From positions 1 to 64,000 of IMG/VR virus record IMGVR_UViG_3300021963_000027: 64,000 bases of DNA. One strand, given 5' to 3'. Below, one piece after another: positions 9,369 through 58,094 of the stretch. Origin of the DNA: a virus. The translations under genes and the position numbers were made by a program. Below the pieces are notes generated by a model. The model made no database searches. It had not been told where the DNA came from and saw nothing but the letters and a program-made list of their open reading frames with translations. The number at the start of each line of letters is the position of its first letter. The first letter of the stretch is position 1.

Positions 9369-9581
9369 ATGGAAGAAGAAATTAGCGAAGAAATTGTATT
9401 TAAAACATATAATGATAACAATCTCATTCATTTTGAGGTAACACTTGCCAAAGAAGATAAGTGGTTTGCACTCATCTCTGGATTACCAAACAATGGCGAA
9501 ATTAAAGATATTGAGACATTGAAGAGAATTATTAAGTGTTTGAAAAAAGCTAAAAAACGCTGGAAAGAATTAAAAAACTAG
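9369..9581 (+). CDS. hypothetical protein
   Basis: Ends LKN* in motif. Confidence 0.7.
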   Translation: MEEEISEEIVFKTYNDNNLIHFEVTLAKEDKWFALISGLPNNGEIKDIETLKRIIKCLKKAKKRWKELKN

Positions 9582-9595
9582 AATACAATCGGTGC

Positions 9596-10030
9596 ATGAT
9601 CAATGCCAGTGGGGTAATTAAAGTAGAAAGAGATAGACAACGCATCGTCGTTGAGACTTCTCCTGATATTATTGATTATTACCACTGGCATCTGTCAAAA
9701 AAATATTGGATTCTCTTACAACGTCCTTTACATAAAGCTCACATCACTATTACGAATCCCAAATTTCACAAAGATGTCAATTGGCAACGTGCTGTGTATT
9801 ATGATGGAGAACGTGTGAATTTTCAGTATGATCCATGTGTAATACAAGGTGGTCACACCAAAGGATTCATCATGTTTTATTTAAAAGTTTATTCGGAAGT
9901 GCTTGACAATATGAAAAAAGACCTTAATATCGTGGAGAACAATGGCTACCGTGGACTTCATATTACCCTTGCGAACGGAAAACACGGTAATGTTCATCCG
10001 TGGTGGCCTAAAATGATTACAATCAAATAA
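9596..10030 (+). CDS. 2H phosphoesterase-like protein
   Basis: Two HxT motifs (AHITI, LHITL). Confidence 0.65.
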   Translation: MINASGVIKVERDRQRIVVETSPDIIDYYHWHLSKKYWILLQRPLHKAHITITNPKFHKDVNWQRAVYYDGERVNFQYDPCVIQGGHTKGFIMFYLKVYSEVLDNMKKDLNIVENNGYRGLHITLANGKHGNVHPWWPKMITIK

Positions 10031-10034
10031 TTTT

Positions 10035-10205
10035 ATGAAAACATATACTTGGAATTATGCTGTTGAAGGTATCTTTACTTTTATGCCTCTTTACATCACG
10101 GTAGAAGCCGAAACAGAAAAAGAGGCTAAGGATGAAGCTATTGTAAAAATACAATCAACACACGGAGATAGGAAAATCATTTTCTTCACATTAGATATAA
10201 AATAA
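10035..10205 (+). CDS. hypothetical protein (56 aa)
   Basis: Fills gap, TAATG-coupled. Confidence 0.65.
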   Translation: MKTYTWNYAVEGIFTFMPLYITVEAETEKEAKDEAIVKIQSTHGDRKIIFFTLDIK

Positions 10206-10705
10206 TGAAATATAAAAAACATGCAGTTACAATGATGGATGGTTTGGAAACCTATCGCATCGGTAGTGAAGCTATCATTACACTACAACCATCTACTGGT
10301 TATGTGTCGGTATCATGCCCTCATTATCAGGAGTTGAATGGGTGTCATTGGTGGACACATCGAGGTAACTATACTCTACACGAATTTTTAATCGATTTAC
10401 ATGCCGATTACACTATGAATAAATTATTCGATTCGCGCAAATTGGAAGAATATGATGAAGATCAGACCAAAAAAGACATTCGTGACTATGTGATCAATTT
10501 GAGAGTGAATAATCGGATTTCCAAAATTAAAGCTAGAGATATTTGGACAGAGGTTGAGTATGCAGAAACAATGGATGATATTGCTAGATTGGAAGGGATT
10601 GAATGTCCATATGAATTCATTCGACACAAAGACAAATGGTGTGTGGCGTGGTTTTGGAATGAGGTTTGGTTTTCGTTTATTGAACACTTAAAAGAAAAGA
10701 AATAA
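10205..10705 (+). CDS. hypothetical protein
   Basis: ORF. Confidence 0.8.
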   Translation: MKYKKHAVTMMDGLETYRIGSEAIITLQPSTGYVSVSCPHYQELNGCHWWTHRGNYTLHEFLIDLHADYTMNKLFDSRKLEEYDEDQTKKDIRDYVINLRVNNRISKIKARDIWTEVEYAETMDDIARLEGIECPYEFIRHKDKWCVAWFWNEVWFSFIEHLKEKK

Positions 10706-10709
10706 TAAT

Positions 10710-10895
10710 ATGAATGAACATTTTATATCAGGAGCATGTGGTTTTGGGTTAGCGATTCTTCTATTGATCGTGACAGGACTTACTCCAAAAGCCACACAAG
10801 AAAAATTTGAAAAAGAAGCATTTAGCCATGGCTATATGGAAAAAATTATTAACGACAAAGACCAAGTGATCTATCGCTGGAAGGAGAAACAATAA
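10710..10895 (+). CDS. small membrane-anchored protein
   Basis: Hydrophobic N-term. Confidence 0.7.
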   Translation: MNEHFISGACGFGLAILLLIVTGLTPKATQEKFEKEAFSHGYMEKIINDKDQVIYRWKEKQ

Positions 10896-10896
10896 C

Positions 10897-11505
10897 ATGA
10901 AACCAATCAAAGGAAAAACATATCGTCTGAAAGATGGAGATCGGATTTTAAGAGGCATTTATTCTGGTGAGGAAGATGGTTCTTTCACTATTTATAAATT
11001 TTTTATTTTCGATGATACCGATGATCGTAAATGGTTTTCGGAATCTGAAATCATCGAAGAAATCGAACCTAAAGAGAGACAGCGAATCCACGGCAAAGAC
11101 CGCAACCCAAAGCATGGTGACTTCTCTGATTATGAAGTTCGCTGTATGGTGGCAAACTATTGCCGCGACATTACAGTTGGGGTGGCAGGTTGGGGCGTTC
11201 CCTTCACTGTGTGGGTAGAACTGAAAGGTCTTGCCAAATTCGAGAACGGTTCTCTCTATAAGCTAGAGAAACCTACTTGTGAATGTGAGATGTGTGATGG
11301 GCGCAGAGCAGCGCACGAAGAACTTGAGGAATGTCTTGACAATCTGGAAGTAGATGATAGAGTGAAAGTAATCAATCCTGATTATACATTATCTCTTGGT
11401 CAAGAGGGGTTTATTAGTGAGATCGTTGAGGATGAAATTATGGTTAATTTCACTGGTGGATGGAGAGGTTGGTTTAATAAAGAAGATGTAGAAAAAATAA
11501 AATAA
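10897..11505 (+). CDS. hypothetical protein
   Basis: ORF. Confidence 0.8.
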   Translation: MKPIKGKTYRLKDGDRILRGIYSGEEDGSFTIYKFFIFDDTDDRKWFSESEIIEEIEPKERQRIHGKDRNPKHGDFSDYEVRCMVANYCRDITVGVAGWGVPFTVWVELKGLAKFENGSLYKLEKPTCECEMCDGRRAAHEELEECLDNLEVDDRVKVINPDYTLSLGQEGFISEIVEDEIMVNFTGGWRGWFNKEDVEKIK

Positions 11506-11681
11506 TGATAACAGAAGAGCAACAAAAACAAATTGAATCCATCGTCAAAAACCTGATTCCTTGTCGTGCGCAAGCATATATGTTTGGATCAAAACATAAG
11601 ATTGTTCACACTAATAACCGCTATTGGGATTTGATGAGCTTTTATCAAGGACAATGGCATTACATCGCAACATTAAAATAA
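11505..11681 (+). CDS. hypothetical protein (58 aa)
   Basis: TAATG-coupled. Confidence 0.6.
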   Translation: MITEEQQKQIESIVKNLIPCRAQAYMFGSKHKIVHTNNRYWDLMSFYQGQWHYIATLK

Positions 11682-11692
11682 TAAAAAAAAAT

Positions 11693-11926
11693 ATGAAAAT
11701 TATATTTGAAAAAGAAGAAAATCAAGATAAGCATTTGACTATTGCTGATGTCGAGGACAATCAATTCTTTGTATGCGAAGTCGGTTATCTGTGTCAAAAG
11801 GTCAGCAATTCCCTTTACACTACCATCACGGATGAAGATGGATTACTTAGCTGCGAAATTTTTGATTGCGATTCTGATTACCCAATCAAGCGCATTCTTC
11901 CTAAGATCGCGAAGATTGAATTCTAA
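11693..11926 (+). CDS. hypothetical protein
   Basis: ORF. Confidence 0.7.
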   Translation: MKIIFEKEENQDKHLTIADVEDNQFFVCEVGYLCQKVSNSLYTTITDEDGLLSCEIFDCDSDYPIKRILPKIAKIEF

Positions 11927-11938
11927 TCAATAAAAAAT

Positions 11939-12181
11939 ATGAACTACTTTATACTTCTAGCAACTAACCCTCCTATGGACAATAAGATCGCTGCGATAAT
12001 TTTTCTATGCAGTGCTGTGTTGGTTGCAACACACATACTTTCCTATCTAGCTGGTGCTAATGCTGAGAGCAGCGGTGGTGGTGATGCACCAATAATGCTG
12101 CCATTCGTATTGGTCATGTTTGCTACAATCGCATCAACATTAGGCTCTCTTATTATTATCTTAATAAACATTTTATCTTAA
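11939..12181 (+). CDS. membrane protein
   Basis: Two hydrophobic segments. Confidence 0.75.
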   Translation: MNYFILLATNPPMDNKIAAIIFLCSAVLVATHILSYLAGANAESSGGGDAPIMLPFVLVMFATIASTLGSLIIILINILS

Positions 12182-12190
12182 ACTAACACT

Positions 12191-12385
12191 ATGTCAAAAA
12201 ATATATTAATCTACTTATTCGGAGCTTGGACAGCAAGCTCAATCTGGATGGCTATAACAGGTATTGGTTATAACTCAAATCAAGCACAGGCGATTCCATT
12301 TGGGCTTTTCAGCTTAATTGCTTGGGTTGGCACAATTATTGGTTTAATCTACGAGACAATGAAAACTCTTGATAACGAAGACTAA
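12191..12385 (+). CDS. membrane protein
   Basis: Two hydrophobic segments. Confidence 0.75.
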   Translation: MSKNILIYLFGAWTASSIWMAITGIGYNSNQAQAIPFGLFSLIAWVGTIIGLIYETMKTLDNED

Positions 12386-12624
12386 TGAACCATAATCCTC
12401 TCACGAAAAAACAATTAGAAGAATTAGGCTTTACAGTCACAGAGCAAAAGCTTAAAACAAAAACAAAAGTAGAAATCGAATACGAACCGTGGGGGAATAA
12501 TCACATTGATACGTTTTATCATTACCCTTCTTTTGGAGAAATTATTGATCGCATCGTCTCAAATGTGAGACAAGATGAACGTGACAGAATAAAAGCAAAA
12601 ATAACAAACAAATTATTCCAATAA
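12385..12624 (+). CDS. hypothetical protein
   Basis: ORF. Confidence 0.75.
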   Translation: MNHNPLTKKQLEELGFTVTEQKLKTKTKVEIEYEPWGNNHIDTFYHYPSFGEIIDRIVSNVRQDERDRIKAKITNKLFQ

Positions 12625-12703
12625 AAAATATGAGAACAAAACAATTTGAATTAAGCAACTACTCATCAAACGGTAAACACTTTGGAGGAATTATTATACA
12701 CCT

Positions 12704-12976
12704 ATGACATACGAAAAATTCAGAGCAAAATACCGAATCGTCAAAGTGCAATATGATGAACGACCTAATTACTTCACTTACATTGTTCAATGCCGAAAAT
12801 TTTTCTTCTGGTGGGGTGCGCCAGTCACACCATACTCAGATAAACGATTCCTATCTTTTAGAGTGTGTATGGGTGAATACCAGCACATAACTTTCTTTAG
12901 TATTGAAAAGGCTGAAGAGGCTATTAAGAAACAATACAATTATTGGTATCGTGTAACACCTGAAGTAGTAGCTTAA
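12704..12976 (+). CDS. hypothetical protein
   Basis: ORF. Confidence 0.75.
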   Translation: MTYEKFRAKYRIVKVQYDERPNYFTYIVQCRKFFFWWGAPVTPYSDKRFLSFRVCMGEYQHITFFSIEKAEEAIKKQYNYWYRVTPEVVA

Positions 12977-12991
12977 CTAACAAAACGAGAT

Positions 12992-13285
12992 ATGAGAACA
13001 AAACAATTTGAATTAGAAAACAGCAGTATTGCTTATGGTGAGTCAATTGAACAGCTAATTAAAACTCTTGAGAGCCTTAACAAACGAGCAAAGGAGCACG
13101 GAGCAATTGATACATCTGTCGATTTTTATCATGGAGACGGTGGCTATGTTCAAATTTGCGGCATTCGATACATGACACCTGAAGAGATTGCAAAAGCTGA
13201 AGCAGACGATGCAGTTAGAAACCAAAAACAACTTGATTGGGAGCGCAAACAATACGAAGCTCTTAGAGCAAAATTCGAACCATAA
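12992..13285 (+). CDS. hypothetical protein
   Basis: ORF. Confidence 0.8.
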   Translation: MRTKQFELENSSIAYGESIEQLIKTLESLNKRAKEHGAIDTSVDFYHGDGGYVQICGIRYMTPEEIAKAEADDAVRNQKQLDWERKQYEALRAKFEP

Positions 13286-13292
13286 TAAAAAT

Positions 13293-13613
13293 ATGAATTA
13301 TAATCACGAAACACACGACGAACGTAATCTCTGTGAATACTATCCAGAGGGGTTCGACTGGGAAGACGAAATGACACTTGAATATCTTATCGACGCACTT
13401 CAAAAGACATTACAAAATGCTTATGCAGATGGAATGGAAGTAGAAGACACCAGTTTCAAATGGTTTAGACATGATGGGTATATGGATATTGATGGCTTCT
13501 TCCCATATACGGAAGAGCAAATTGAGGAAAATAGAATCCGAGAAGAGCAGCGTCAGAAATGGAGAAAAGAACATCTTAAACAAGAATTGGAGAAATTAGA
13601 AAAAGGAGAATAA
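13293..13613 (+). CDS. hypothetical protein (resembles upstream neighbour)
   Basis: ORF. Confidence 0.75.
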   Translation: MNYNHETHDERNLCEYYPEGFDWEDEMTLEYLIDALQKTLQNAYADGMEVEDTSFKWFRHDGYMDIDGFFPYTEEQIEENRIREEQRQKWRKEHLKQELEKLEKGE

Positions 13614-13719
13614 TATGTGGTGCTTTATATCGTTAATCTTTTACTGTCTTTGTTTGCTTGCGGTGATTGCCATGTGCAAAGCTGCAAGTGACGAATATAA
13701 ACCCAAAAAATAAAAAAAT

Positions 13720-14223
13720 ATGAAACCATGGATGCCACAAAATCAAATTGATTTAATACAATCGTATTTAAAACCAACTGACACAATGTTGGAATATGGA
13801 GCAGGAGGATCTACTTTATATTTTTCTCAATATGTGGAAAAATATGTCAGTATTGAACATGATATAAATTGGATTGATAAAATACGTGAGAATAAAATGC
13901 CTGATAATGTTGAATTACATTATTGCGCTCCAAATAATAAAATTCAATTACCAACTTGGAAAGGAAATCCTGAAGATTTTCAAAATTATATTTCTTTTAT
14001 TGATACTTTAAATTACAAAAATTATGATAAGGTTTTTATTGATGGGAGAGTTCGGGTTGAATGTAGCGTGAAAGTATTGGATTATTTAAATACTGATTCA
14101 CTCGTATTCGTTCATGACTTCTTTGAAAGAGATAGGTATCATAAAATACTCGAATATTATAAAATTATTGATCAAGATAGAAACACTAGACCAAGTTTAG
14201 TGATACTTAAAAAACATGAATAA
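13720..14223 (+). CDS. class I SAM-dependent methyltransferase-like protein
   Basis: LEYGAGGST, VSIEHD, YDKVFIDGR, VHDF. Confidence 0.8.
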   Translation: MKPWMPQNQIDLIQSYLKPTDTMLEYGAGGSTLYFSQYVEKYVSIEHDINWIDKIRENKMPDNVELHYCAPNNKIQLPTWKGNPEDFQNYISFIDTLNYKNYDKVFIDGRVRVECSVKVLDYLNTDSLVFVHDFFERDRYHKILEYYKIIDQDRNTRPSLVILKKHE

Positions 14224-14539
14224 AAATATGGAAGAAGAACCAGAATACGAATACTATGTTGTGGAGGTGGTTAAAAAATCTTACTCCGAAATCTATATCA
14301 AAGTCCCAAAAGGAGAAGAGATTACATGGAGAGATAAGAAATTGATTTCCGAAGCAGCAGTGGAAACGCTTGAAGACTGTGATTGGGACGACTGTGGGGA
14401 TTTGGAAACCGATTCTATTCGGAAAACATCTGAAAAAACCGCTAAGTTCTACGAAGTTTATGATGCGACAGAATACTTTCCAGTAAGACCAAAACCTGAA
14501 GACCCAAATCAAATGACACTTGACTTTTTAAAAAACTAG
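14216..14539 (+). CDS. hypothetical protein
   Basis: Ends LKN* in motif. Confidence 0.8.
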   Translation: MNKNMEEEPEYEYYVVEVVKKSYSEIYIKVPKGEEITWRDKKLISEAAVETLEDCDWDDCGDLETDSIRKTSEKTAKFYEVYDATEYFPVRPKPEDPNQMTLDFLKN

Positions 14540-14571
14540 AATACAATAACCACCACAACGAAAATAATATT

Positions 14572-14925
14572 ATGGGATTAGATATGGGTTTATATTCCGC
14601 AAAGCGGAAAAATGATGAAATTGCTTATTGGAGAAAATTCAACGCACTACATCAGTGGTTTGTTGAAAATTTGGAAGGAGTTGATAATTGCGAATACTCT
14701 CCAGTATCCAAAGAAAAATTGGAAGAATTGGTGAAAACGTTGGAAGAATTACAAACAACCAAAAACACAGAACTTCTACCAACTCAAAGTGGCTTTTTCT
14801 TCGGTTCAACGGAGTATGATGAATGGTATTGGGGAAACGTTGATAGAACTATCTCCACTCTAAAAGGGATTCTTGGAGACTTTGATTTTGAAAACGACCA
14901 ATTACTTTACAGCGCAAATTGGTAA
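14572..14925 (+). CDS. conserved phage hypothetical protein
   Basis: MGLDM..YWRKFNALHQWF..DNC. Confidence 0.85.
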   Translation: MGLDMGLYSAKRKNDEIAYWRKFNALHQWFVENLEGVDNCEYSPVSKEKLEELVKTLEELQTTKNTELLPTQSGFFFGSTEYDEWYWGNVDRTISTLKGILGDFDFENDQLLYSANW

Positions 14926-14956
14926 AAATAAAAAACTAGAATACACTATGCAGACA

Positions 14957-15217
14957 ATGTTAATTAATTATATTAGAAATGAAAATCGGAAACCACACGG
15001 AGTCGTTGTGGCATTTAAACAAGACGGAAAAATTCATTATGGATACTCTCTCCATAATCCTATTGACAAATGGGATCGTGAGCTTGGTATCAAAATTGCT
15101 GTGGCTCGTGCCAATGCGAATGAATTTCAATTGCCTAAAGTTGATAATCGCCTTAAATCGGTGAGTGAAGCAATTGAACATATGAAAACCCGCTCTAACA
15201 AATACTTCAAACAATAA
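14957..15217 (+). CDS. hypothetical protein
   Basis: After M-promoter. Confidence 0.75.
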   Translation: MLINYIRNENRKPHGVVVAFKQDGKIHYGYSLHNPIDKWDRELGIKIAVARANANEFQLPKVDNRLKSVSEAIEHMKTRSNKYFKQ

Positions 15218-15218
15218 T

Positions 15219-15830
15219 ATGGGAACACGAAATTTGACATGTGCTGTCATCGATAAGAAATACAAAGTAGCTCAATACGGGCAATGGGATGGCTATCCAT
15301 CTGGTCAGGGTATTACGATTCTAAATTTCTTGAGAAATAAGCTGAATCGTCCTCTGATGGAGAAACGACTTCGCGAAGTTCAATTCCTGAATGATGCTGA
15401 AATTAAACTGATCAACGAAGCTAATAAACCATTACCCCAACAATTAAGTAGGGATTGTGGTGGTCACATCTTGGAATTTCTTCAAAATGGGGAATATACT
15501 AAAAGTGAATTGTTTAGATCAGTGACATATACATGGGAGATGGATAAGTTACATAATCGATTGGATTTTGCTGGTGATTCTTTATTCTGTGAATGGGCTT
15601 ATGTCGTGGACTTTGATGAAAATACTTTTGAAGTCTATGAGGGATTTGTTAAAGAACCTCATGAGGGTGAAAGGTTTTCTGATGTGGGATGTGTGGAGAC
15701 TGCCCAAGGGGAACGACGATACTATCCAATCAAATTGAAGAAAAAATATGATTTAAATAATCTCCCAACGGAAGAAGAATTTTTAAAAGAATTAGAACAA
15801 CAAGAAGAAGAAGAACAAGACAATGAGTGA
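15219..15830 (+). CDS. conserved phage hypothetical protein
   Basis: MGTR..QYGQWDGYP..G..CEWAYVVD. Confidence 0.85.
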   Translation: MGTRNLTCAVIDKKYKVAQYGQWDGYPSGQGITILNFLRNKLNRPLMEKRLREVQFLNDAEIKLINEANKPLPQQLSRDCGGHILEFLQNGEYTKSELFRSVTYTWEMDKLHNRLDFAGDSLFCEWAYVVDFDENTFEVYEGFVKEPHEGERFSDVGCVETAQGERRYYPIKLKKKYDLNNLPTEEEFLKELEQQEEEEQDNE

Positions 15831-16014
15831 TAATAGTAGTAGTAATGGTGGAATTGGATTTGCTGGTCTTTTGACTGTGGCATTTGTGGTTCTGAAATTG
15901 TGTGGAGTAATTGCGTGGTCGTGGTGGTGGGTTCTTTCCCCTATCTGGATTTCCATTTTATTGGTAATCGCTATTGTGGCATTGATTGTCATCGTAAAAT
16001 TATTCACTGAATGA
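15823..16014 (+). CDS. membrane protein
   Basis: GGIGFAGLLTVAFVVLKL..WSWWWV. Confidence 0.85.
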   Translation: MSDNSSSNGGIGFAGLLTVAFVVLKLCGVIAWSWWWVLSPIWISILLVIAIVALIVIVKLFTE

Positions 16015-16331
16015 TGATCCCAGAGAAGACATTACCTGTTCATGAACTCAAGTATTACCACAGTGATAATCTAGGGTTCGTGTTCATCGGTGCTTCAAAA
16101 TCCTCCGATGATGCCATTCAAAGATTAGCTCAATTTTTGGTGGATATTGGAGTATCGAACGAATTACCAGAATTTTATCAACGTGTTAAATCAAATGCAG
16201 TAGTATTCGTATATGGGGGTAATTCTGGATTTCAAAGCGGTAATTTCTATCGTGCTGCCAATCGAACCAATCTGATGGGTATTTTTAAAATTGAAACATT
16301 GGGAATATATTTAGATGGATTACAAGCTTAA
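16011..16331 (+). CDS. hypothetical protein
   Basis: ORF. Confidence 0.75.
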   Translation: MMIPEKTLPVHELKYYHSDNLGFVFIGASKSSDDAIQRLAQFLVDIGVSNELPEFYQRVKSNAVVFVYGGNSGFQSGNFYRAANRTNLMGIFKIETLGIYLDGLQA

Positions 16332-16332
16332 T

Positions 16333-16560
16333 ATGTTACCAATGGAATTAGGGGGGACTGCTGTTCTTGATTATGATCCTGAATATCATCATCTCATGGA
16401 AGAAACCTTAGTGCTTTGTGGTCGAGAGGATATTATTTTATGCTCTCGATCATATACAAACCAAGAAAAATGTTCCATGCACCTAATTAGTGAAAATTAT
16501 GACTTGACAGATTGGTGGGATGCCACTAAGATAATCAGCGAAAAGTATGCAAACAAATGA
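16333..16560 (+). CDS. hypothetical protein
   Basis: ORF. Confidence 0.7.
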   Translation: MLPMELGGTAVLDYDPEYHHLMEETLVLCGREDIILCSRSYTNQEKCSMHLISENYDLTDWWDATKIISEKYANK

Positions 16561-16981
16561 AATTACAATACCTCTGGAACTTTTTGATGGTAGATTCTCT
16601 CTTGAAGAAATCGCCACAATAAGTATGATCTTTGCCTCTCCAAATCTCTCTTTAAAAACTAGAGAACAATGGGGTGGTAATCCGAAGTGCGGTGAAATCA
16701 CTGATAAATTAGTGCAAGACGGTATCATCAAATTTCATGATGATAAAATTGAAATCGACATAACAGAAAAACAAGAACCTATGAACATCCATAAACAAAT
16801 TGAAAATATTCTTGGTAAATATCAAATCGACCAAGAAGATCAAGAAGACCTCAATGATTTGCTGGAAACCATTGGACACGAATCCTTTGGTTCTGGTTAC
16901 GAGAAAGGCTATGATGATGGTAGAATCGATTTCGCAGAACCATCGTTTTCTTCCTATGGTAATAAGGAAGACTACGTTTAA
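16547..16981 (+). CDS. hypothetical protein
   Basis: ORF. Confidence 0.75.
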   Translation: MQTNEITIPLELFDGRFSLEEIATISMIFASPNLSLKTREQWGGNPKCGEITDKLVQDGIIKFHDDKIEIDITEKQEPMNIHKQIENILGKYQIDQEDQEDLNDLLETIGHESFGSGYEKGYDDGRIDFAEPSFSSYGNKEDYV

Positions 16982-17003
16982 AAAACTAGAGTATACTATC
17001 GAC

Positions 17004-49923: not shown

Positions 49924-49945
49924 AAAACTAGATTAGAATTAGGAC

Positions 49946-50212: not shown

Positions 50213-50234
50213 AAAACTAGAATAGAATTAGAAC

Positions 50235-50447: not shown

Positions 50448-50461
50448 AATACAATTACACC

Positions 50462-50755: not shown

Positions 50756-50769
50756 AATACACTTGGGAC

Positions 50770-50973
50770 ATGAAAAGATACAGATACGATCCTTATTGTG
50801 ATAGCTTCAAGTGCTTCCAAGGAATGGAAGAATCACCTGATGGTGATTGGGTGAACATCGAAGCAAGAGAACTCCTGAAACGTGCGATGGATTTACTACA
50901 AGATTATTGCACGGAACTCAATGGCATGAATTGCTATCTCAGCAAAGAGATTGAAGAATTTCTTAAAAACTAA
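50770..50973 (+). CDS. hypothetical protein
   Basis: Leaderless. Confidence 0.8.
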   Translation: MKRYRYDPYCDSFKCFQGMEESPDGDWVNIEARELLKRAMDLLQDYCTELNGMNCYLSKEIEEFLKN

Positions 50974-50987
50974 GATTCAATAAACAC

Positions 50988-51191
50988 ATGAACAGAAGCA
51001 GAATCGCATTGGTTTACATGGATGATGGAAACAATTTCTTCATCGAAAATCCCCCGAATGGTAATCCCGAAACATGGATTGATCATCATGTTTATTCCAT
51101 CTCTAATGTGGAGAATGTCATAGTTTATGATTTGGGAGGGGTGGTAGAGAATTGGGTAAATCCTGATGTGTCATCCGAAGAAGAGGAATAA
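50988..51191 (+). CDS. acidic hypothetical protein
   Basis: Leaderless. Confidence 0.75.
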   Translation: MNRSRIALVYMDDGNNFFIENPPNGNPETWIDHHVYSISNVENVIVYDLGGVVENWVNPDVSSEEEE

Positions 51192-51213
51192 AAAACTAGA
51201 TTAAAATAAACAC

Positions 51214-51351
51214 ATGATGACACTTGAACAAATTATCAATTTCTTCAAATCTCTGGAAGAAATCACCCATGAAAACATGGAATCTGAATCAGATAGAACG
51301 GAATTGTTGCGCTGTGTTGCTCTAGCAGAAAATGCTCTTCGCGGTGGTTAA
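51214..51351 (+). CDS. hypothetical protein (45 aa)
   Basis: Leaderless. Confidence 0.65.
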   Translation: MMTLEQIINFFKSLEEITHENMESESDRTELLRCVALAENALRGG

Positions 51352-51395
51352 TCAACATGATTAAAAACATTGATAAACCAAGGAAAAACGACTGC

Positions 51396-51433
51396 GACAA
51401 AATGACGCAGGGGTGTGACAAAATGACGCAGGG
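51396..51433. repeat. 17-bp direct repeat GACAAAATGACGCAGGG x2, period 21 bp
   Basis: 51396-51412 and 51417-51433; related copy at 53704-53724. Confidence 0.85.
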
Positions 51434-51485
51434 ATAGACGGATATAGAAAAGAATATAAATAAAAAACTAGAGTAAAATTTTACT

Positions 51486-51728
51486 ATGCTCAACATCACC
51501 ATTGATCCCAAAGAAATCCGCGCTGAATATCGTGAAGACCAAAGCAATCGCGGATGGTTGTATATCTCAGTTCCTAACGGATGGGATGACGTATCAAAAT
51601 TGTGTAAGAAAGTTCTCACGTATGACAATCGCAAATTCTTTTATAGTGGTTGGAATTCCGATAGAAATGATTGTTTCTTCAAGGAAGAACTGGTAGGAAG
51701 TTCCACGGTGGTAGCACGAATCAATTAA
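51486..51728 (+). CDS. hypothetical protein
   Basis: Leaderless. Confidence 0.8.
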   Translation: MLNITIDPKEIRAEYREDQSNRGWLYISVPNGWDDVSKLCKKVLTYDNRKFFYSGWNSDRNDCFFKEELVGSSTVVARIN

Positions 51729-51749
51729 AAACTAGAATAAACTGATAAC

Positions 51750-51929
51750 ATGATAAGACAATACACCAATCAACTACTGGAAATGATCGACAACGGAATC
51801 CTTGATGCTGAAACGGTTCTCCGTTCGTGTCTCTCTTATATGTCCGAAGCAGAAGTGCAGGACATGGCAGAATCCGAGGGATTCATCGAAGAAGAGGAAG
51901 AGGAAGAGGAAGAGGACGAAGAAGAGTAA
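51750..51929 (+). CDS. acidic protein with poly-Glu tail
   Basis: Leaderless. Confidence 0.75.
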   Translation: MIRQYTNQLLEMIDNGILDAETVLRSCLSYMSEAEVQDMAESEGFIEEEEEEEEEDEEE

Positions 51930-51939
51930 AATCCCCCCT

Positions 51940-52029
51940 CAGTCTCAATAAGGGCATTTTCAAGAATCCTTGATATATCAATGAAAAAAGTCATTTTGCT
52001 CTAGGACTATTTGAAGCTTATTGAGACTG
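51940..52029. repeat. 90-bp element with 13-bp terminal inverted repeats
   Basis: CAGTCTCAATAAG / CTTATTGAGACTG; internal palindrome TTGATATATCAA. Confidence 0.85.
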
Positions 52030-52066
52030 GAAAACACAAATTAAAAAACTAGACTAATATGTGTAT

Positions 52067-52141
52067 GTTGTCGGTGGCGAAGTGGTAACGCGAGGCTGAA
52101 TTAACAGCAAGAAACGTGAGTTCGATTCTCACCCGACGACA
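52067..52141 (+). ncRNA. tRNA-like RNA with 6-nt AATTAA anticodon loop
   Basis: Acceptor GTTGTCGG/CCGACGAC, D-arm, GTGAG-TTCGATT-CTCAC; starts at +1 of M-promoter. Confidence 0.7.
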
Positions 52142-52174
52142 CACTCTTTAAAAACTAACCTAAAATAATACCAC

Positions 52175-52402
52175 ATGAAAGACATCGCAGTAATCAAACT
52201 TCATAATAGCACAGTAAGTTCCGTTTATAGCACGGACACTGTAGAAGGTGCAAAAGAACTGGTGCGGGATTTGTTCTATTTCCAATTCAAACGCACTCTA
52301 AATGATGAAGAAAATGACCAATTGGAAGACATGTTAGAAGTTTACAATGATGAAGATCATGATAATATTTTCACATTCAGCATCGCATTTGTCAATCCTT
52401 AA
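52175..52402 (+). CDS. hypothetical protein (paralog of 48230)
   Basis: Motif-bounded. Confidence 0.8.
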   Translation: MKDIAVIKLHNSTVSSVYSTDTVEGAKELVRDLFYFQFKRTLNDEENDQLEDMLEVYNDEDHDNIFTFSIAFVNP

Positions 52403-52423
52403 AAACTAGACTAAACTGATACC

Positions 52424-52756
52424 ATGACCAACACCGACCTACAACAACCAAACGATCTATCAAACAAAGGCAAACAAGCCCATGCTGCAATCGTGGCATT
52501 TCTTGAGAAGCACAAACTCACCTACACAGGGGGATGCAAAGCGTTCTATTCACCTAAAGAGTGGAAGGAGCGGGAAGAGGATTACGGGTGTGACAGTGAG
52601 CTTGTCGTGGTGTATGATGGGGGTGATCACGGAGACGCTTTCTCATACAGCCGTGAGAATTACAAGATGATCGAAGCAATGAATGAGATTCTGAAACCGC
52701 TCGGTCTTTACAGTGAACCATGCACCTGCTGGTACACAGCGATCTACCTCAGTTAA
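52424..52756 (+). CDS. hypothetical protein
   Basis: Leaderless. Confidence 0.85.
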   Translation: MTNTDLQQPNDLSNKGKQAHAAIVAFLEKHKLTYTGGCKAFYSPKEWKEREEDYGCDSELVVVYDGGDHGDAFSYSRENYKMIEAMNEILKPLGLYSEPCTCWYTAIYLS

Positions 52757-52778
52757 AAAACTAGACTAACATTGCACC

Positions 52779-52982
52779 ATGATCATTCGATACACTAGCA
52801 AGATGGGATATAAAGCAATGCCAGATGAGAAGTTCAAAGGAACAGTTCTTGAGGCGAAAGCTCATGCGATGGGGAAAATGAATGATGATACTTACACCAT
52901 CTCCATTGAAGACAAGAAAAACAAAATTGTTTTTAACTATGGCTACACGGGAGTATCTCTCGGACAAAATAAAGTGAAATAA
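52779..52982 (+). CDS. hypothetical protein
   Basis: Leaderless. Confidence 0.8.
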   Translation: MIIRYTSKMGYKAMPDEKFKGTVLEAKAHAMGKMNDDTYTISIEDKKNKIVFNYGYTGVSLGQNKVK

Positions 52983-53003
52983 AAACTAGACTAACATTGC
53001 ACC

Positions 53004-53114
53004 ATGACATACCTATTCATTCCGACACTCATCATATCATTCATAGCTATCGGCTCCCGCAGCTTCATATTCTATGCTACTGCGATAGTCATGTGGTGTC
53101 TGACACTCAGCTAA
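53004..53114 (+). CDS. 36-aa hydrophobic peptide
   Basis: Leaderless. Confidence 0.65.
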   Translation: MTYLFIPTLIISFIAIGSRSFIFYATAIVMWCLTLS

Positions 53115-53146
53115 GAATTAAAAAACTAGACTAAACTGATTCCGTT

Positions 53147-53272
53147 ATGAAATACAAACACTGCACAATCCTCAAAGCAATCGCTGGTTACAATGTATAT
53201 GCCAGCAATGACATCTTGAATGTTCCTACCATCGCAGCAGCAAAGGCACTGATCGACGGATTAAAAAACTAG
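53147..53272 (+). CDS. 41-aa peptide
   Basis: Motif-bounded, ends LKN*. Confidence 0.65.
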   Translation: MKYKHCTILKAIAGYNVYASNDILNVPTIAAAKALIDGLKN

Positions 53273-53309
53273 ACTAAACTGATAACGTAACCAATAACCA
53301 CTGAATACC

Positions 53310-53567
53310 ATGACCAATAAAGAAATCATTACAAAATTCGTAAAAGGCGCAACCACTGGCAAGATCACCCGCAACAATCCATATGCAGGGGGCAAGCTCA
53401 CTCCGCTCTTCATCGAGGGTGACACTATCTACTCTTATGGACACCACTTCCCCCTCGCTCGTCGCAATGGCGATGGCACTTTCTGGGTGAATCCCGACAA
53501 GTATAGCGTCACCACCAGCAAGCATCAGTCGCTTGTGCGCTACGCAATCAGCAAATTTTCGGTGTAA
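53310..53567 (+). CDS. hypothetical protein
   Basis: IYSYGHHFPLA..YSVTTSKHQS. Confidence 0.85.
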   Translation: MTNKEIITKFVKGATTGKITRNNPYAGGKLTPLFIEGDTIYSYGHHFPLARRNGDGTFWVNPDKYSVTTSKHQSLVRYAISKFSV

Positions 53568-53611
53568 CATGGCAAAGTCCCCTCTCTTCCGTGGTAGGAA
53601 GAGAGGGGCAA
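53565..53611 (+). other. GC-rich stem-loop
   Basis: CCCCTCTCTTCC/GGAAGAGAGGGG then CAA. Confidence 0.75.
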
Positions 53612-53643
53612 CCCTTTTTAAAAAACTAGACTAAACTGTTACC

Positions 53644-53718
53644 ATGCCTGACATCACCGACCTATCCGACAGCGACCTGCAAGACCTGATTGACTACTTG
53701 CAAGGTGTGACAAAATGA
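53644..53718 (+). CDS. 24-aa acidic peptide
   Basis: Leaderless. Confidence 0.55.
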   Translation: MPDITDLSDSDLQDLIDYLQGVTK

Positions 53719-53769
53719 CGCACCTGAAAAACCAATCCAATTAAAAAACTAGCATAGAATAGCTATACC

Positions 53770-53931
53770 ATGCAAGACTTTAAAGAATATATTCAATCCG
53801 CTCTCGACTCCAACGTTCTCTGTGAGGTTATGGGATGGGACACAAAACACGGTCCAACAGTGGAACAAATGCAAGCACTGGACACCCTTTTGGGTGAGAG
53901 TCTCGAATCTTTAAAAACTAGACTAAACTGA
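53770..53931 (+). CDS. hypothetical protein (53 aa)
   Basis: Motif-bounded. Confidence 0.65.
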   Translation: MQDFKEYIQSALDSNVLCEVMGWDTKHGPTVEQMQALDTLLGESLESLKTRLN

Positions 53932-53938
53932 TTACGTC

Positions 53939-54079
53939 ATGAAAACTTACTACGCGCATATCCGTCTGACTAACCGCGAGCGCAGTCTGCTCGCGCAAGC
54001 AATCCGCATCAATCGCCACCAGCGCAAAACCTTCACCCGTAAAGATGCCCACAATCTGGCATGGGTGCTGTTCGCATAA
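53939..54079 (+). CDS. basic peptide (46 aa)
   Basis: Motif-bounded. Confidence 0.65.
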   Translation: MKTYYAHIRLTNRERSLLAQAIRINRHQRKTFTRKDAHNLAWVLFA

Positions 54080-54108
54080 TTAAAAAACTAGAGTAAACTG
54101 ATTACGTC

Positions 54109-54396
54109 ATGAAAACACAAAAAGAGATTAAATTAAAAGACGGTTCAACGCTTGCCAAAGGTCTGCCAGTATCATTCGTTGCTGGCAGTGATAGCCGATG
54201 CCTTGTGCATTCTCCCGCGCATTCTGAGCCGTTGCAAGTGCGCATCACAAGCGCGTTCAAAGCACCTTCCATGGCTTCTCTGGAACGCTGGGGAATGGAT
54301 GGCGTGTGCAAGACTCCCACGGGCAAGCGTGTCGAGCCTGATGGATACGGTTCTGATGGTAGCCCGTCATGGCTGCTGGTTTTCGGACTCATCTGA
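54109..54396 (+). CDS. hypothetical protein
   Basis: CKTPTGKRVEPDG..DGSPSWLL. Confidence 0.85.
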   Translation: MKTQKEIKLKDGSTLAKGLPVSFVAGSDSRCLVHSPAHSEPLQVRITSAFKAPSMASLERWGMDGVCKTPTGKRVEPDGYGSDGSPSWLLVFGLI

Positions 54397-54456
54397 ATCC
54401 AAGGGGGGAGCGCATCCTACACGCTCATTAAAAAACTAGACTAAACTGATTGCACC

Positions 54457-54612
54457 ATGAAAGTCTATATCTCTTACAACTGTGGTTTCGCTTGCATCCG
54501 TGAAATGGGAACTGACAAAGTTCTCCACGAACTCAAAGGCAAGCGTTCTATTGAACAGCACTTTGCTACTGGTAAAACCTATGCCAAGAAAATGGGATGG
54601 GAACTCGCATAA
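54457..54612 (+). CDS. hypothetical protein (51 aa)
   Basis: Motif-bounded. Confidence 0.65.
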   Translation: MKVYISYNCGFACIREMGTDKVLHELKGKRSIEQHFATGKTYAKKMGWELA

Positions 54613-54640
54613 TTAAAAACTAGCCTAAACTGATTGCACC

Positions 54641-54805
54641 ATGAAATACAACGTAACTAATATTCAATGGGATACCGATGGTATCCCTAACAAATCCCTT
54701 CCGACAAGCATCACCCTTGAAGTGGAAGATGAAGATGATGTGATAGATGATCTTTCCGATGAATATGGCTTTTGCATATTCTCTGCTGACATTGAAGAAG
54801 CGTAA
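54641..54805 (+). CDS. acidic hypothetical protein (54 aa)
   Basis: IQWDTDG..LSDEYGFC. Confidence 0.75.
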   Translation: MKYNVTNIQWDTDGIPNKSLPTSITLEVEDEDDVIDDLSDEYGFCIFSADIEEA

Positions 54806-54833
54806 TTAAAAACTAGCCTAAACTGATTGCACC

Positions 54834-54929
54834 ATGAAACTCGACACTAACAAATGCAAGGGACTTCCAATGGGAGTCCGCAATCGCAAGCGCACGATCC
54901 TATCCAAGATCATCCGCTGGTTCAATTAA
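54834..54929 (+). CDS. basic peptide (31 aa)
   Basis: Motif-bounded. Confidence 0.6.
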   Translation: MKLDTNKCKGLPMGVRNRKRTILSKIIRWFN

Positions 54930-54951
54930 AAAACTAGACTAAACTACTACC

Positions 54952-55254
54952 ATGTCCAACACCATCAACACCCTGTCAGGCAAGTGCGCGAAATCATTCG
55001 CGTGGAAACCATTCGCGTCCGCGACTATCGCAAAAGGTAAAATTCCCTTTGCTTTCTGGGAGTCAAACCGATCAAAACGTGAGTGCAATAGCATCACGGT
55101 GATTGAGTTCGACTCGGAGCATGAAATTTCATCATGGATCTCGGATCTCTGCTCTGGTGCAATCATTTGCGATTCCAACTATTTCTGGTGCGTCTCAGTG
55201 AATGGTAAATTCGAATCATCAAAATCTCGCTACGGTGGATACCTCAGTGCCTAA
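54952..55254 (+). CDS. hypothetical protein
   Basis: Leaderless. Confidence 0.8.
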   Translation: MSNTINTLSGKCAKSFAWKPFASATIAKGKIPFAFWESNRSKRECNSITVIEFDSEHEISSWISDLCSGAIICDSNYFWCVSVNGKFESSKSRYGGYLSA

Positions 55255-55297
55255 CGGTGCTGGGGCTTTTAAAAAACTAGACTAAACTGTTACTACC

Positions 55298-55504
55298 ATG
55301 AGACTTCAAACCATCATCAATCAATTCGCCATCACCACGCGCAAAACACGCGAGGGCAATACCATCGTGGAAGCACCCATCGGCACTGAGTATCGTCGCT
55401 TTCTTTTCAACCTTCAGGACTACGTTGTCACGGGTTGCGCTGGTGATATGGTATGGCTTAGTCCACGCCAAGGTTTCTATGGCGGTGTCCCATACGGCAA
55501 TTAA
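55298..55504 (+). CDS. hypothetical protein
   Basis: Motif-bounded. Confidence 0.8.
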   Translation: MRLQTIINQFAITTRKTREGNTIVEAPIGTEYRRFLFNLQDYVVTGCAGDMVWLSPRQGFYGGVPYGN

Positions 55505-55529
55505 AAAACTAGACTAAACTGTTACTACC

Positions 55530-55766
55530 ATGAGAAAAGGATACGGACCAACCAACGTTAGCTACCACCTCCCCCTTCAGCGTTTCACCGAGATGGTGAA
55601 GCAGGGGATCAACATCGCTCAGGGAGTCGATGACAATAACAAAGTGCTTTCCAGCACACTGCCGCAAAACCTATCGGAAAATTCAATCAAAAGAATTTTC
55701 GACGATGCGGATTGCGTCTGCTACCACGGAGGTGTTCAGATGATCATCCCCCGTCATCTTGCTTAA
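55530..55766 (+). CDS. hypothetical protein
   Basis: Motif-bounded. Confidence 0.8.
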   Translation: MRKGYGPTNVSYHLPLQRFTEMVKQGINIAQGVDDNNKVLSSTLPQNLSENSIKRIFDDADCVCYHGGVQMIIPRHLA

Positions 55767-55826
55767 AGACTAGGGGGGAGCGCATCCTACACGCTCATTA
55801 AAAAACTAGAGTAAACTGTTACTACC

Positions 55827-56039
55827 ATGATTACTGTATTGACCATCGAAGACCTTGAAACAATCATCACCAAAACGTCCCCGCGCCTTAGTGCGCTCGG
55901 AATCGTGTACGCAATCATCAATGATGATACTGATGAAGAAGTCACAAGCCGATACCCCACAATCGAGGAAGCGTGGGATGAATTTAAAAAGACTTGGGTT
56001 GTCGGGACGTTCACCGTTCTCACAATCTTTAGATCCTGA
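55827..56039 (+). CDS. hypothetical protein
   Basis: Motif-bounded. Confidence 0.8.
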   Translation: MITVLTIEDLETIITKTSPRLSALGIVYAIINDDTDEEVTSRYPTIEEAWDEFKKTWVVGTFTVLTIFRS

Positions 56040-56068
56040 TTAAAAAACTAGAGTAAACTGTTACTACC

Positions 56069-56305
56069 ATGAATACTACCACTGCTACCACCGCCACCGC
56101 CAAGAACTTCATCGTTGCCTTCCACGACTGGCAAGGCAATCGCCATACAGTTCAAGTCAAAGCTTCCGATAAAACGTCCGCATACGATGCGGCGTGGCAA
56201 TGGATTGAAGAGAATCGCGGCGACCAACTGGAAATTGAATTTGCGGGTGTTAAAGAGATTGTCTATCTCAAAGACATCATCGCAGAAGCACTGGCTGCAA
56301 ATTAA
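56069..56305 (+). CDS. hypothetical protein
   Basis: Motif-bounded. Confidence 0.8.
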   Translation: MNTTTATTATAKNFIVAFHDWQGNRHTVQVKASDKTSAYDAAWQWIEENRGDQLEIEFAGVKEIVYLKDIIAEALAAN

Positions 56306-56327
56306 AAAACTAGAGTAAAATAGCTCT

Positions 56328-56420
56328 GTCAACCCCTTCCAACTATCGCGAAGGGTCAACCTGAACCATCAACTACCCCGTCTCTCCCGACCACAGGGAG
56401 GGGCGGGGCAACCAATCTGC
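56328..56420 (+). ncRNA. ORF-less M-promoter cassette with two hairpins
   Basis: No ATG; CCCTT/AAGGG and 13-bp GC stem 56376-56408. Confidence 0.45.
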
Positions 56421-56451
56421 TTTTAAAAAACTAGAGTAGACTGCTACTACC

Positions 56452-56670
56452 ATGAATTACATCACTCCAGAATACGACTTCACAGGACGCTGCACTCCAT
56501 CGGAGGAAGCACAACGCAAGGAAGCGCAAGCGTTCGCCGCCTATCGCGAAAAGGAAGAAGCTAAAAAATTCAAGGTGCGCGATGCCTTCGGGTTCTCCCG
56601 CTACGCCACCTTGGAAGAAGCGCAAGCGTTCGCCGCCACCCTCAAGAATGCAGAGATCATCATCCTATAA
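56452..56670 (+). CDS. hypothetical protein with internal repeat EEAQRK/AFAA
   Basis: Motif-bounded. Confidence 0.75.
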   Translation: MNYITPEYDFTGRCTPSEEAQRKEAQAFAAYREKEEAKKFKVRDAFGFSRYATLEEAQAFAATLKNAEIIIL

Positions 56671-56699
56671 TTAAAAAACTAGAGTAAACTGATTACGCC

Positions 56700-56909
56700 A
56701 TGAATGAAATTACTGCTGACGAGGCACTTGCCCAAATTCGCTCCATGTCCGATAGAGAGTTAGTTGCTTTCTGGAATGTCTTGCAATTCTCTTCCCGTAT
56801 GGTAGGGAGCGGTCGCGACACTTTCAGAGAACCACTGGTTTCTCTTGTCATGAGTGAGCGCAAAATCCCTCATGAGATTGGGAAGCGAACTCTAACATCT
56901 AACATCTAA
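56700..56909 (+). CDS. hypothetical protein
   Basis: Motif-bounded. Confidence 0.75.
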   Translation: MNEITADEALAQIRSMSDRELVAFWNVLQFSSRMVGSGRDTFREPLVSLVMSERKIPHEIGKRTLTSNI

Positions 56910-56942
56910 CATCTAACGCCCACGGTCTAACAGATCGTGGGC
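56891..56942 (+). repeat. 52-bp direct repeat copy 1: (TCTAACA)3 + hairpin
   Basis: Identical to 58097-58148. Confidence 0.9.
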
Positions 56943-56969
56943 TTTTAAAAACTAGAGCAAACTGTTGCC

Positions 56970-58094
56970 ATGCCTACTACCAATACTACCACTGCTACCA
57001 TCCCCGCCTCCGCCCGTGCAGCATTCATCGCTGCCCTCGTCAAACTCAATCGTCGCGCTGCTCGCTTGGGCTGCGCACCACTGACAATCGTATCGACAGT
57101 CGATACGATCGTGGAGATCGACAGAGTGAAGTTCCCTGCGCTCCGTCTCGAAATCGCAGGTACAACACCAACTTTTTCAGGTTGGACGTTTGCCGCCTCT
57201 GTCGAAGCACTTGACACTGGAAAAAACATCTTCCATGGTGCTAGCGACATCCCTGCGCGATTCGCTAGCACTGGTCACGCCTGTGAGCATTGCAACCAAA
57301 ATCGCAAGCGCAACTCCAGCTTCATCTTGAGCCATGAAGCAGGTGACTACAAGCAGGTTGGTTCGACCTGCATCAACGACTTCCTCGGTGGTAATCACTT
57401 GCCAGTGTTCAATTTCCTCTCGAATGCGCGTGAGATTCTCAGCGAGTTTGAGAGCTTCGCAAACGCTACCATTGACAGCGTGAGCGTGATCACCACCCTC
57501 GTGGCATCCGCCGCCACGATTCGAGAGCATGGCTTCGCGAAGAAAACAGGATGGGATGGTGAAGGTGCGCGTCCCACGGCATCTCTCGTCGAATCGTTTC
57601 TTTTGGACGTTCGCAACCCTAAGCGTTTCGTTCCTGACATCACGGAAAACGATGAGGCGAAAGCAGAAGCCGTTCGCGCTTGGTTGGTCAACCACGAAGG
57701 AACGCAAAGCGATTACCTGCAAAAGCTGATCGACTTGGCAGCAGCAACACGGGTGTCATCTCGAAACATCGGTATCCTCGCATCGTCCATCGCCGCCTAT
57801 GATCGCGAGTTAGAGCGCAAAGCACAAGTCCTTGCCAGTCCTTCCAATCACGTTGGAACGGTGGGCAAGCGTGAGTCGTTCACCGTCTCTCTCACTGGTT
57901 GCAAGGTGCTTCCCGACTATGGCTATGGTTGCTCAAATCTCTATTCATTCAAGGACGAAAACGGCAACATCCTGAAGTGGAAAACACAAGCGCAACTCGA
58001 ACGCACTGGCACGTTCCAGATCACTGGAACGGTGAAATCACACGGTGCGTGGAACGGCGTGAGTGAAACCGAACTGACTCGGTGCAAAGTCTAA
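56970..58094 (+). CDS. 374-aa protein with CxxC Zn motif and C-terminal OB-fold-like region
   Basis: CEHCNQNRKRN..VGSTC; HVGTVGKRESF..FKDENGNILKW..ITGTVKSH. Confidence 0.8.
   Translation: MPTTNTTTATIPASARAAFIAALVKLNRRAARLGCAPLTIVSTVDTIVEIDRVKFPALRLEIAGTTPTFSGWTFAASVEALDTGKNIFHGASDIPARFASTGHACEHCNQNRKRNSSFILSHEAGDYKQVGSTCINDFLGGNHLPVFNFLSNAREILSEFESFANATIDSVSVITTLVASAATIREHGFAKKTGWDGEGARPTASLVESFLLDVRNPKRFVPDITENDEAKAEAVRAWLVNHEGTQSDYLQKLIDLAAATRVSSRNIGILASSIAAYDRELERKAQVLASPSNHVGTVGKRESFTVSLTGCKVLPDYGYGCSNLYSFKDENGNILKWKTQAQLERTGTFQITGTVKSHGAWNGVSETELTRCKV

Follow-up and report, generated by a model that had tools for sequence, protein, structure and literature searches.

Promoter-early stem-loop (PeSL) cassettes of ∼100 bp lie in the hyperplastic regions of T4-type phages, where recombination explains the insertions and deletions (indels) of ORFans between phages RB49 and phi1 and makes mini-circles (Arbiol et al. 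2010, PMC2839356); later work applied this model to T4/PST and KVP40/nt-1 as well (Comeau et al. 2014, PMC4122927). Here we describe an array of short repeats in a 64,000-nt stretch of viral DNA (hereafter, the window), which comprises bases 1–64000 of the linear 184,181-bp IMG/VR record IMGVR_UViG_3300021963_000027. The repeated motif reads as an early-class promoter, with its −10 box TAnA[A/C]T at −12 to −7 and the predicted +1 on the A of the ATG that follows, and a comparison of relatives at 85–99% identity reveals gain, loss, replacement and movement of motif-to-motif units. We consider it likely that an early-class leaderless promoter, combined with PeSL-like general homologous recombination between the promoter repeats, explains the array as a whole.

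The array shares four features with PeSLs. First, early promoters, which are predicted ones in the present array, are repeated and concentrated in an ORFan-rich hyperplastic region of a T4-superfamily phage; here the repeats are confined to 1–62 kb, among small open reading frames (ORFs) mostly without a known family, in a region with ∼3–4 times more breakpoints than the core. Second, the upstream gene ends on a stop codon within the AT-rich 5′ part of the repeat. Third, the indel and replacement breakpoints of close relatives fall in the repeats, and fourth, homologous recombination between repeats, possibly via mini-circles, is the proposed mechanism. However, the conserved unit is ∼30 bp here, compared to ∼100 bp for PeSLs, and the copies are about twice as dense (∼90 versus ∼50). 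Nearly all copies have a −10-like hexamer and the AT-rich 5′ part, but a −35 box is present in just 7 of 103 and a stem-loop at just ∼5 of 86; moreover, there is no Shine-Dalgarno site, the ATG being at the predicted +1, and the invariant core AAAAACTAGA has no PeSL counterpart. Because the stem-loop, the −35 box and the Shine-Dalgarno site fail, the array is not a PeSL in the strict sense; it is a leaderless variant of PeSL-type shuffling.

The motif is far more frequent than expected by chance and is almost always in one orientation. Allowing ≤1 mismatch, we counted 104 occurrences of the core AAAAACTAGA in the window, compared to 11.1 ± 3.2 in shuffled sequences. In the entire 184-kb record, AAAACTAG has 92 copies on the + strand but two on the − strand, and all except two of the + strand copies are within 1–62 kb; 85 motif copies fall in 9572–56972. 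The density of the array rises from ∼1 copy per 2 kb at 9–34 kb to ∼1 per 300 bp at 44–57 kb. A logo of 86 copies yields the consensus (A)TTWAAAAACTAGA-n-TAnA[A/C]T-n5-C-ATG, in which the 10-nt core AAAAACTAGA is invariant, and there is no conservation further upstream. Measured from the first A of AAAACTAG, the ATG begins at offset 22 in 62 copies, at offset 25 in 18 and at offset 24 in five. The motif has no dyad symmetry except CTAG and is not an attC-like palindrome.

The motif also fills the space between genes. An earlier reading of the sequence (the sequence-only reading) had described ∼27 ORFs that end inside the motif in LKN*, IKN* or FKN*, with most others stopping on the TAA at its 5′ edge so that no intergenic DNA is left. 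Indeed, we find that the upstream ORF stops on the in-motif TAG or TAA (offset +5, …[L/I/F]KN*) in 28 copies and on the 5′-edge TAA (offset −3 or −2) in ∼36, while in ∼10 it stops on a TAA located 4–7 nt further 5′; the gap from stop to start is just 14–22 nt and is wholly occupied by the motif. The TAA and TAG of the motif end ORFs in two of the three frames because the AT-rich promoter overlaps the end of the preceding gene; the third frame reads through into the next ATG, and ORFs in that frame must therefore stop earlier. The stop codons of the motif are a by-product of promoters that overlap gene ends. The motif reads primarily as a promoter; its stops, and its use as a substrate for recombination, would follow from the repetition of an AT-rich element at gene ends in a phage that encodes UvsX. 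About half of the ORF calls in 1–58 kb, which are crude, have no motif and lie in overlapping or tightly coupled operons.

Evidence for the promoter reading comes from the base composition and spacing of the hexamer at offsets 10–15, which has T in 95%, A in 100%, any base, A in 91%, A or C, and T in 99% of the 86 copies in the logo. The ATG begins 6 nt after this hexamer and is preceded by C in 80% of copies. A sigma-70 −10 box at this spacing sets +1; to judge from the spacing, mRNAs driven by the motif would be leaderless. The −35 boxes are TTGAC[A/T]-like, and five of the seven are TTGACT with a 16-nt spacer. Three of the copies with a −35 box (25616, 42722 and 61424) are in true intergenic DNA, where they head + strand transcription units. 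In addition, tRNA or tRNA-like genes start 22–26 nt past the copies at 42722 and 52045, which a translation signal would not explain. The same motif and spacing are present in relatives, and we count the strong co-orientation of the copies in favor of a promoter.

The late genes have a similar geometry. In the 64–184 kb part of the record, cTAAATAATAnn is found immediately 5′ of the ATG of late genes (e.g. L009:16899-16960 (-) and L014:6120-6181 (+)), and 32 ORFs of ≥120 aa have TAAATA at a distance of precisely 11 nt from the ATG. T4 late promoters have TATAAATA at −13 to −6 and are read by gp55/gp33. As TAAATA is at the T4-late position (−11 to −6), the late-class +1 is also predicted on the A of the ATG, and the late class looks leaderless as well. 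Some further genes have the arrangement TTGACA-N17-TAnnnT-N6-ATG. Shine-Dalgarno motifs are not enriched genome-wide (6% versus a background of 7.7%), and in the early motif the −10 box is followed by the ATG after just 6 nt, too few to accommodate one. The entire genome looks built for leaderless messages, with the motif as the early class.

With respect to known promoter types, the motif resembles T4 late promoters and −35-independent promoters (MotA-dependent middle and extended −10), in which a −10-type element suffices and an upstream element replaces the −35 box; as with T4 late and middle promoters, it marks a temporal class, in a phage that has gp55 and TAAATA late promoters. However, its upstream element is at −26 to −14, rather than at approximately −30 (the MotA box) or −15/−14 (TGn), and unlike the T4 late and middle promoters, the early and late classes here both abut the start codon.

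A scan of IMG/VR with the motif identified ∼10 related contigs, of which we fetched five. G004 corresponds approximately to 34.4–64 kb of the window, G002 to 1.2–34.3 kb and G001 to 1–26 kb; these three are 85–99% identical to the window in mosaic blocks, and G005 is more distant. In the motif-dense part, the aligned blocks nearly always begin at motif offset −1 to −4 and end at +13 to +30. Of the pure indels that distinguish G004 from 34–57 kb of the window, 10 of 14 have both ends in the motif and two more are borderline, such that breakpoints in relatives do fall at the motif, as the sequence-only reading led us to expect. The flanks of these indels overlap by 13–51 nt in the genome that lacks the unit, the signature of a single repeat copy left behind. 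The clearest case is the unit at 44430–44590, where G004 follows the left flank of the window through AAAAACTAGAATACA and the right flank thereafter. Overall, breakpoint density is ∼1.1 per kb in the array, compared to ∼0.3 per kb in the structural core.

Units have also moved. A 182-aa gene (39179–39727) and its promoter are motif-bounded in the window, in G004, in IMGVR 3300008266_000544 and in 3300043438_000704, with a different neighborhood in each: the order is changed in G004, the gene has beside it in 3300008266_000544 sequence from which 12 kb separate it in the window, and both of its neighbors in 3300043438_000704 are unrelated.

The positions of the crossovers, and the breakpoints found elsewhere, point to the type of recombination. 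Three-way alignments put the crossover within the repeat, at intervals that vary among events (before offset 9, at 9–17 and at 21–26), although this mapping is uninformative in about half of the 14 events, in which the tail of the product is unlike both parents. In the motif-poor 1–34 kb, indels and a moved gene break at junctions without a motif, which have 7–41 nt of A-rich, …TAAAAAAATATGAA-type microhomology. One ORF of 179 aa with a GmrSD_N (DUF262-type) domain (window 17004–17543), behind the motif at 16982, is altered in both G001 and G002, where the body of the gene is deleted (17011/17533) and the promoter and first codons are kept. Near the end of the array, two copies of a 52-bp repeat flank a unit that consists of the promoter at 56948 and a 374-aa GC-rich gene (phrog_2319, function not assigned); G004 has a single copy of this repeat and no such unit, a 1.2-kb indel. 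Finally, neither a tyrosine recombinase (PF00589) nor a serine recombinase (PF00239) was matched in the 184-kb record or in the five relatives, one of which, G002, spans ∼16 kb missing between the ends of the record; positive controls responded in both searches. The absence of an integrase from the window, noted in the sequence-only reading, thus holds for the whole record, and the recombinase that we did find is a UvsX-like protein, encoded at 129286–130404 of the record. Because crossovers vary, breaks without a motif are at microhomologies, the 52-bp repeat accounts for another indel, and no integrase or resolvase was found, we favor general rather than site-specific recombination. The suggestion that ORFs are captured and excised as motif-to-motif units by recombination at the motif core is thus borne out for the units, which are gained, lost, replaced and moved, but not for the site, since crossovers are not fixed to the core.

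We propose the following mechanism. The repeat would be an early-class promoter that yields leaderless transcripts, with C at −1 and the A of the ATG at +1. The invariant WAAAAACTAGA at approximately −26 to −14 would stand in for the −35 box, and its reading may need the host holoenzyme alone, to which it would be an unusual kind of extended −10/spacer element, or may involve a factor made by the phage. Since a Shine-Dalgarno signal is lacking and terminators between units are nearly absent, a gene would probably be translated well mainly when it is 5′-terminal, which would result in one promoter per small gene. The ∼90 repeats, with 15–35 bp of identity, would then provide portable homology for the general recombination of the phage, which encodes UvsX. 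A unit would be lost, possibly in circular form, when two copies recombine; units would be inserted, replaced or moved when a copy recombines with another genome or a circle; and local exchange or gene conversion would homogenize the promoter tails of neighbors. Such homologous or short-homology recombination would act on any short repeats at gene ends, the promoter being the most abundant of these.

With regard to what might read the motif, the profile of a T7-type phage RNA polymerase (PF00940) gave no match, but its control was silent; the large proteins of the phage without known function matched no polymerase family; our search for a second sigma factor found the gp55-like late sigma alone (encoded at 115775–116215 of the record); and no AsiA homologue was found. 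A search of the literature on leaderless early promoters in myoviruses turned up nothing relevant.

Several points weigh against this explanation. With respect to the promoter, most copies do not have a −35 box, and we can name no promoter element that the invariant core resembles; MotA gave no match in a profile search, but the control was silent in that search. Moreover, an ATG at offset 25 (18 copies) or 24 (five copies) implies leaders of 2–3 nt or a shifted start, and the leaderless start is read from spacing rather than from transcript 5′ ends. With respect to recombination, identity tracts of ∼15–35 bp are short for strand exchange. The excess of breakpoints at motif junctions (48 of 75, compared to 53 of 115 motif-less ones; odds ratio 2.1, P value 0.018) speaks for the explanation, but it rests on crude ORF calls and non-independent comparisons and is confounded by region. 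The record is 89% complete; but G002 spans the gap and likewise has no integrase. Selection alone would also concentrate the surviving breakpoints at gene ends.

This last point is the basis of the alternative that survives best, although we consider it unlikely: illegitimate recombination is random, only junctions at gene ends survive, and the motif has no mechanistic part. It would account for the breakpoints at motif-less gene junctions in 1–34 kb (the 53 of 115) and for the deletion (17011/17533) that takes a gene body and spares its promoter. However, the 14–22 nt between genes are functional throughout, and very few illegitimate joins would restore an intact motif at the exact spacing. 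Each motif junction that we examined is scar-free with 13–51 nt shared at the join, motif junctions break about twice as often as the others, and even the motif-less breakpoints are in microhomologies or in the 52-bp repeat.

A dedicated cassette system, in which an unrecognized recombinase or nuclease acts at the AAAAACTAGA core and excises and inserts units as circles, is in our estimation very unlikely. The 10-nt core is indeed invariant far beyond the needs of a −10 box, most of the clean crossovers map to it, the exchange of units is precise, and most early ORFs have no known family, which leaves scope for such an enzyme. Yet neither a tyrosine nor a serine recombinase was found in six records, the core is no palindrome and has no excess of hairpins beside it, at least two crossovers are outside the core (offsets 9–17 and 21–26), other repeats and microhomologies serve in the same way, and the units come with a promoter each, which integron cassettes do not. 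In a specific form of this idea, the core is both a promoter element and the target of an unrecognized early nuclease or recombinase that is itself an ORFan, making the array a phage-borne cassette-exchange system; if true, this would be a functional analogue of the integron, unrelated by origin, but we give it very little credence. The comparison to integrons, which the sequence-only reading had drawn, holds in that small single-gene units, bounded by repeats and differing between relatives, are arrayed on the same strand. It fails in other respects: neither IntI nor any tyrosine or serine recombinase was found, the repeat lacks the imperfect palindrome of attC sites, each unit has a promoter rather than being a promoterless cassette on a shared Pc, crossover points vary and include motif-less junctions and the 52-bp repeat, and the genome is that of a lytic phage.

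We regard as most improbable of all a function of the motif at the RNA level, in which processing or termination-reinitiation there would free or expose each AUG on long read-through transcripts. In favor of this, the motif is transcribed as well, given almost no terminators between units, a stop codon is 14–22 nt ahead of the next AUG, and there is no Shine-Dalgarno signal. Against it, the conserved positions match a −10 hexamer with C at −1 and A at +1, copies that head units carry TTGACT at the correct 16-nt spacing, the motif precedes tRNA genes too, and TAAATA, a known DNA promoter, is arranged in the same way at late genes.

The promoter-repeat explanation also has to account for the similarity of neighboring copies. 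All the blocks of shared motif-to-ATG sequence that were quoted in the sequence-only reading are present, including AATACACTTGAGAC at 35839 and 36551, AATATACTTGGGAC at 38382, 39728 and 40092, and ATTAGAATTRGGAC at 48913–49924. Adjacent copies share 9.45 of 14 tail positions, compared to 7.91 in shuffled order, and none of 10,000 shuffles reaches 9.45; the similarity declines as the lag between copies grows. Duplication of units was considered as a cause of the matching tails and rejected: the ORFs after identical tails encode unrelated proteins, even at relaxed thresholds, and the blocks are therefore not unit duplications; there is only one paralogue family of six members. These six proteins are 85–142 aa in length with 49–73% amino acid identity, have no Pfam or PHROG family, and end …DGKILKN* in the motif. 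Additional tandem copies of this family are found in relatives (G004 7.5–8.3, 13.0–13.4 and 14.9–16.1 kb).

If crossovers are in the core, the tail should travel with the downstream gene, and homogenization thus needs gene conversion or donor blocks with differing consensus. At some orthologous sites, the tail in G004 is unlike both parents in the window, which favors gene conversion between neighbors. The distal genes at 52–58 kb, where GC content is 43–57%, compared to ∼35% elsewhere, have their own tail subtype (CTAAACTG…, ATG at offset 25) and may be of foreign, higher-GC origin.

A terminator or stem-loop was also considered as a regular part of the unit and was rejected, since hairpins are not enriched beside the motif. 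Terminator-like hairpins in the array number 13, with 14.3 expected, and the folding energy of the 44 nt upstream of the motif is −6.0 kcal/mol, compared to −5.9 kcal/mol in control stretches; clear upstream hairpins are found at ∼5 of 86 copies (53622, 55273, 56427, 56948 and the 35.6-kb site). A strong terminator at 58121–58160 closes the + strand array. Past it, at 58160–58250, are three partial motif copies, inverted and direct (CTAGTTTTTTAA / TTTAAAAACTAG), followed by G-runs. The coordinates of the features are collected in Table 1.

Table 1. Features of the promoter-repeat array and its surroundings (positions in the window)
Feature	Position	Strand	Remarks
Co-oriented motif array, ∼88 copies	8852..56972	+	Motif scan, logo, offsets
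Typical motif copy TTAAAAAACTAGAATACACTGATACCATG	44426..44454	+	TAA ends the upstream 53-aa ORF; TACACT is the predicted −10 box; ATG of the 48-aa ORF at the predicted +1
Motif-to-motif unit, 161 bp (promoter and 48-aa ORF)	44430..44590	+	Absent from G004; crossover inside the shared AAAAACTAGAATACA
Motif-to-motif block, 775 bp	38382..39156	+	Missing from its place in G004; crossover at offsets −9 to +9
Motif-to-motif unit, 422 bp (131-aa ORF)	45541..45962	+	Absent from G004; crossover at offsets 9 to 17
Promoter and 182-aa gene (phrog_4518)	39157..39727	+	Motif-bounded in four different neighborhoods
Motif variant AAAACTAAG with TTGACT −35 box	25616..25641	+	Heads a + strand unit after a minus-strand gene
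Motif copy with TTGACT −35 box (16-nt spacer)	42722..42822	+	Heads a + strand unit; tRNA-Met (42748) starts 26 nt after the motif start
Isolated motif copy with TTGACT −35 box	61424..61448	+	Heads a 64-aa ORF and the tRNA cluster 61654–63243
ORF-less motif copy	52045..52142	+	First base of a tRNA-like gene coincides with offset 22, the predicted +1
ORF-less motif copy	49110..49206	+	No tRNA called by Rfam or ARAGORN
Identical-tail blocks, CTAAACTGATTGCACC ×3 (54432–54809) and TAAACTGTTACTACC ×4 (55273–56044)	54432..56070	+	ATG at offset 25; unrelated ORFs behind
Sole sizeable early paralogue family, six members	29470..47168, dispersed	+	Starts at 29470, 29918, 40755, 42789, 43124, 46788
52-bp direct repeat, left copy	56891..56942	+	Perfect repeat; TCTAACA heptamers and GC-rich terminator hairpin
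52-bp direct repeat, right copy	58097..58148	+	With the T-run (to 58160), forms the intrinsic terminator that ends the array

The phage itself belongs, on the basis of its genes, to a lineage without close cultured relatives. PHROG and Pfam matches identify T4-type core genes in the record, namely a gp23-like major head protein, portal, tail sheath, large terminase and family-B DNA polymerase (PolB), as well as a ribonucleotide reductase and a CCA-adding enzyme. Identity to the nearest cultured phages, which are Methylophilales phage Melnitz, Pelagibacter phage Mosig and cyanomyophages, is just 30–33% for the polymerase and the head protein, and a nucleotide search of a phage collection with 17–24.9 kb as the query gave no match. 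Given this low identity and the lack of a nucleotide match, we assign the record, by its sequence, to a distant, uncultured T4-superfamily myophage. Most of the ∼20 early ORFs that we searched against Pfam and PHROG had no match; the matches were to a GmrSD_N-like domain, a hydrolase, DUF932, RNA ligases and an ATPase.

The tRNA cluster at 61654–63243 comprises nine genes (Met, Gly, Asn, Lys, Glu, Thr, Tyr, Pro and Gln). On the strand opposite to the array, a LAGLIDADG homing-endonuclease gene is found at 7310–8353 (−) of the window, and the stretch 7351–8479 (1,129 bp) is swapped for 31 nt in G001 and G002; by its sequence, this difference is a classic homing-endonuclease insertion, unrelated to the motif. 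In G002, ∼20 kb (66.4–86.6 kb) lies between sequences that match the last and the first kilobases of the record; this join of the record ends therefore places the ∼16 kb missing from the record there, and the phage genome is probably circularly permuted.

The scar-free indels, moved units and mapped crossovers provide unusually clean natural evidence that repeated promoters serve as portable homology for the shuffling of genes in large lytic phages, and they extend the PeSL idea to a lineage without a stem-loop, −35 box or ribosome-binding site. A T4-like phage in which early and late promoters both abut the start codon implies genome-wide leaderless expression and a type of promoter with a conserved element at −26 to −14. 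For ∼90 ORFan genes, the exact start codon and the limits of the unit can be read from the motif, which is also a handle for finding relatives and following the turnover of accessory genes in metagenomes.

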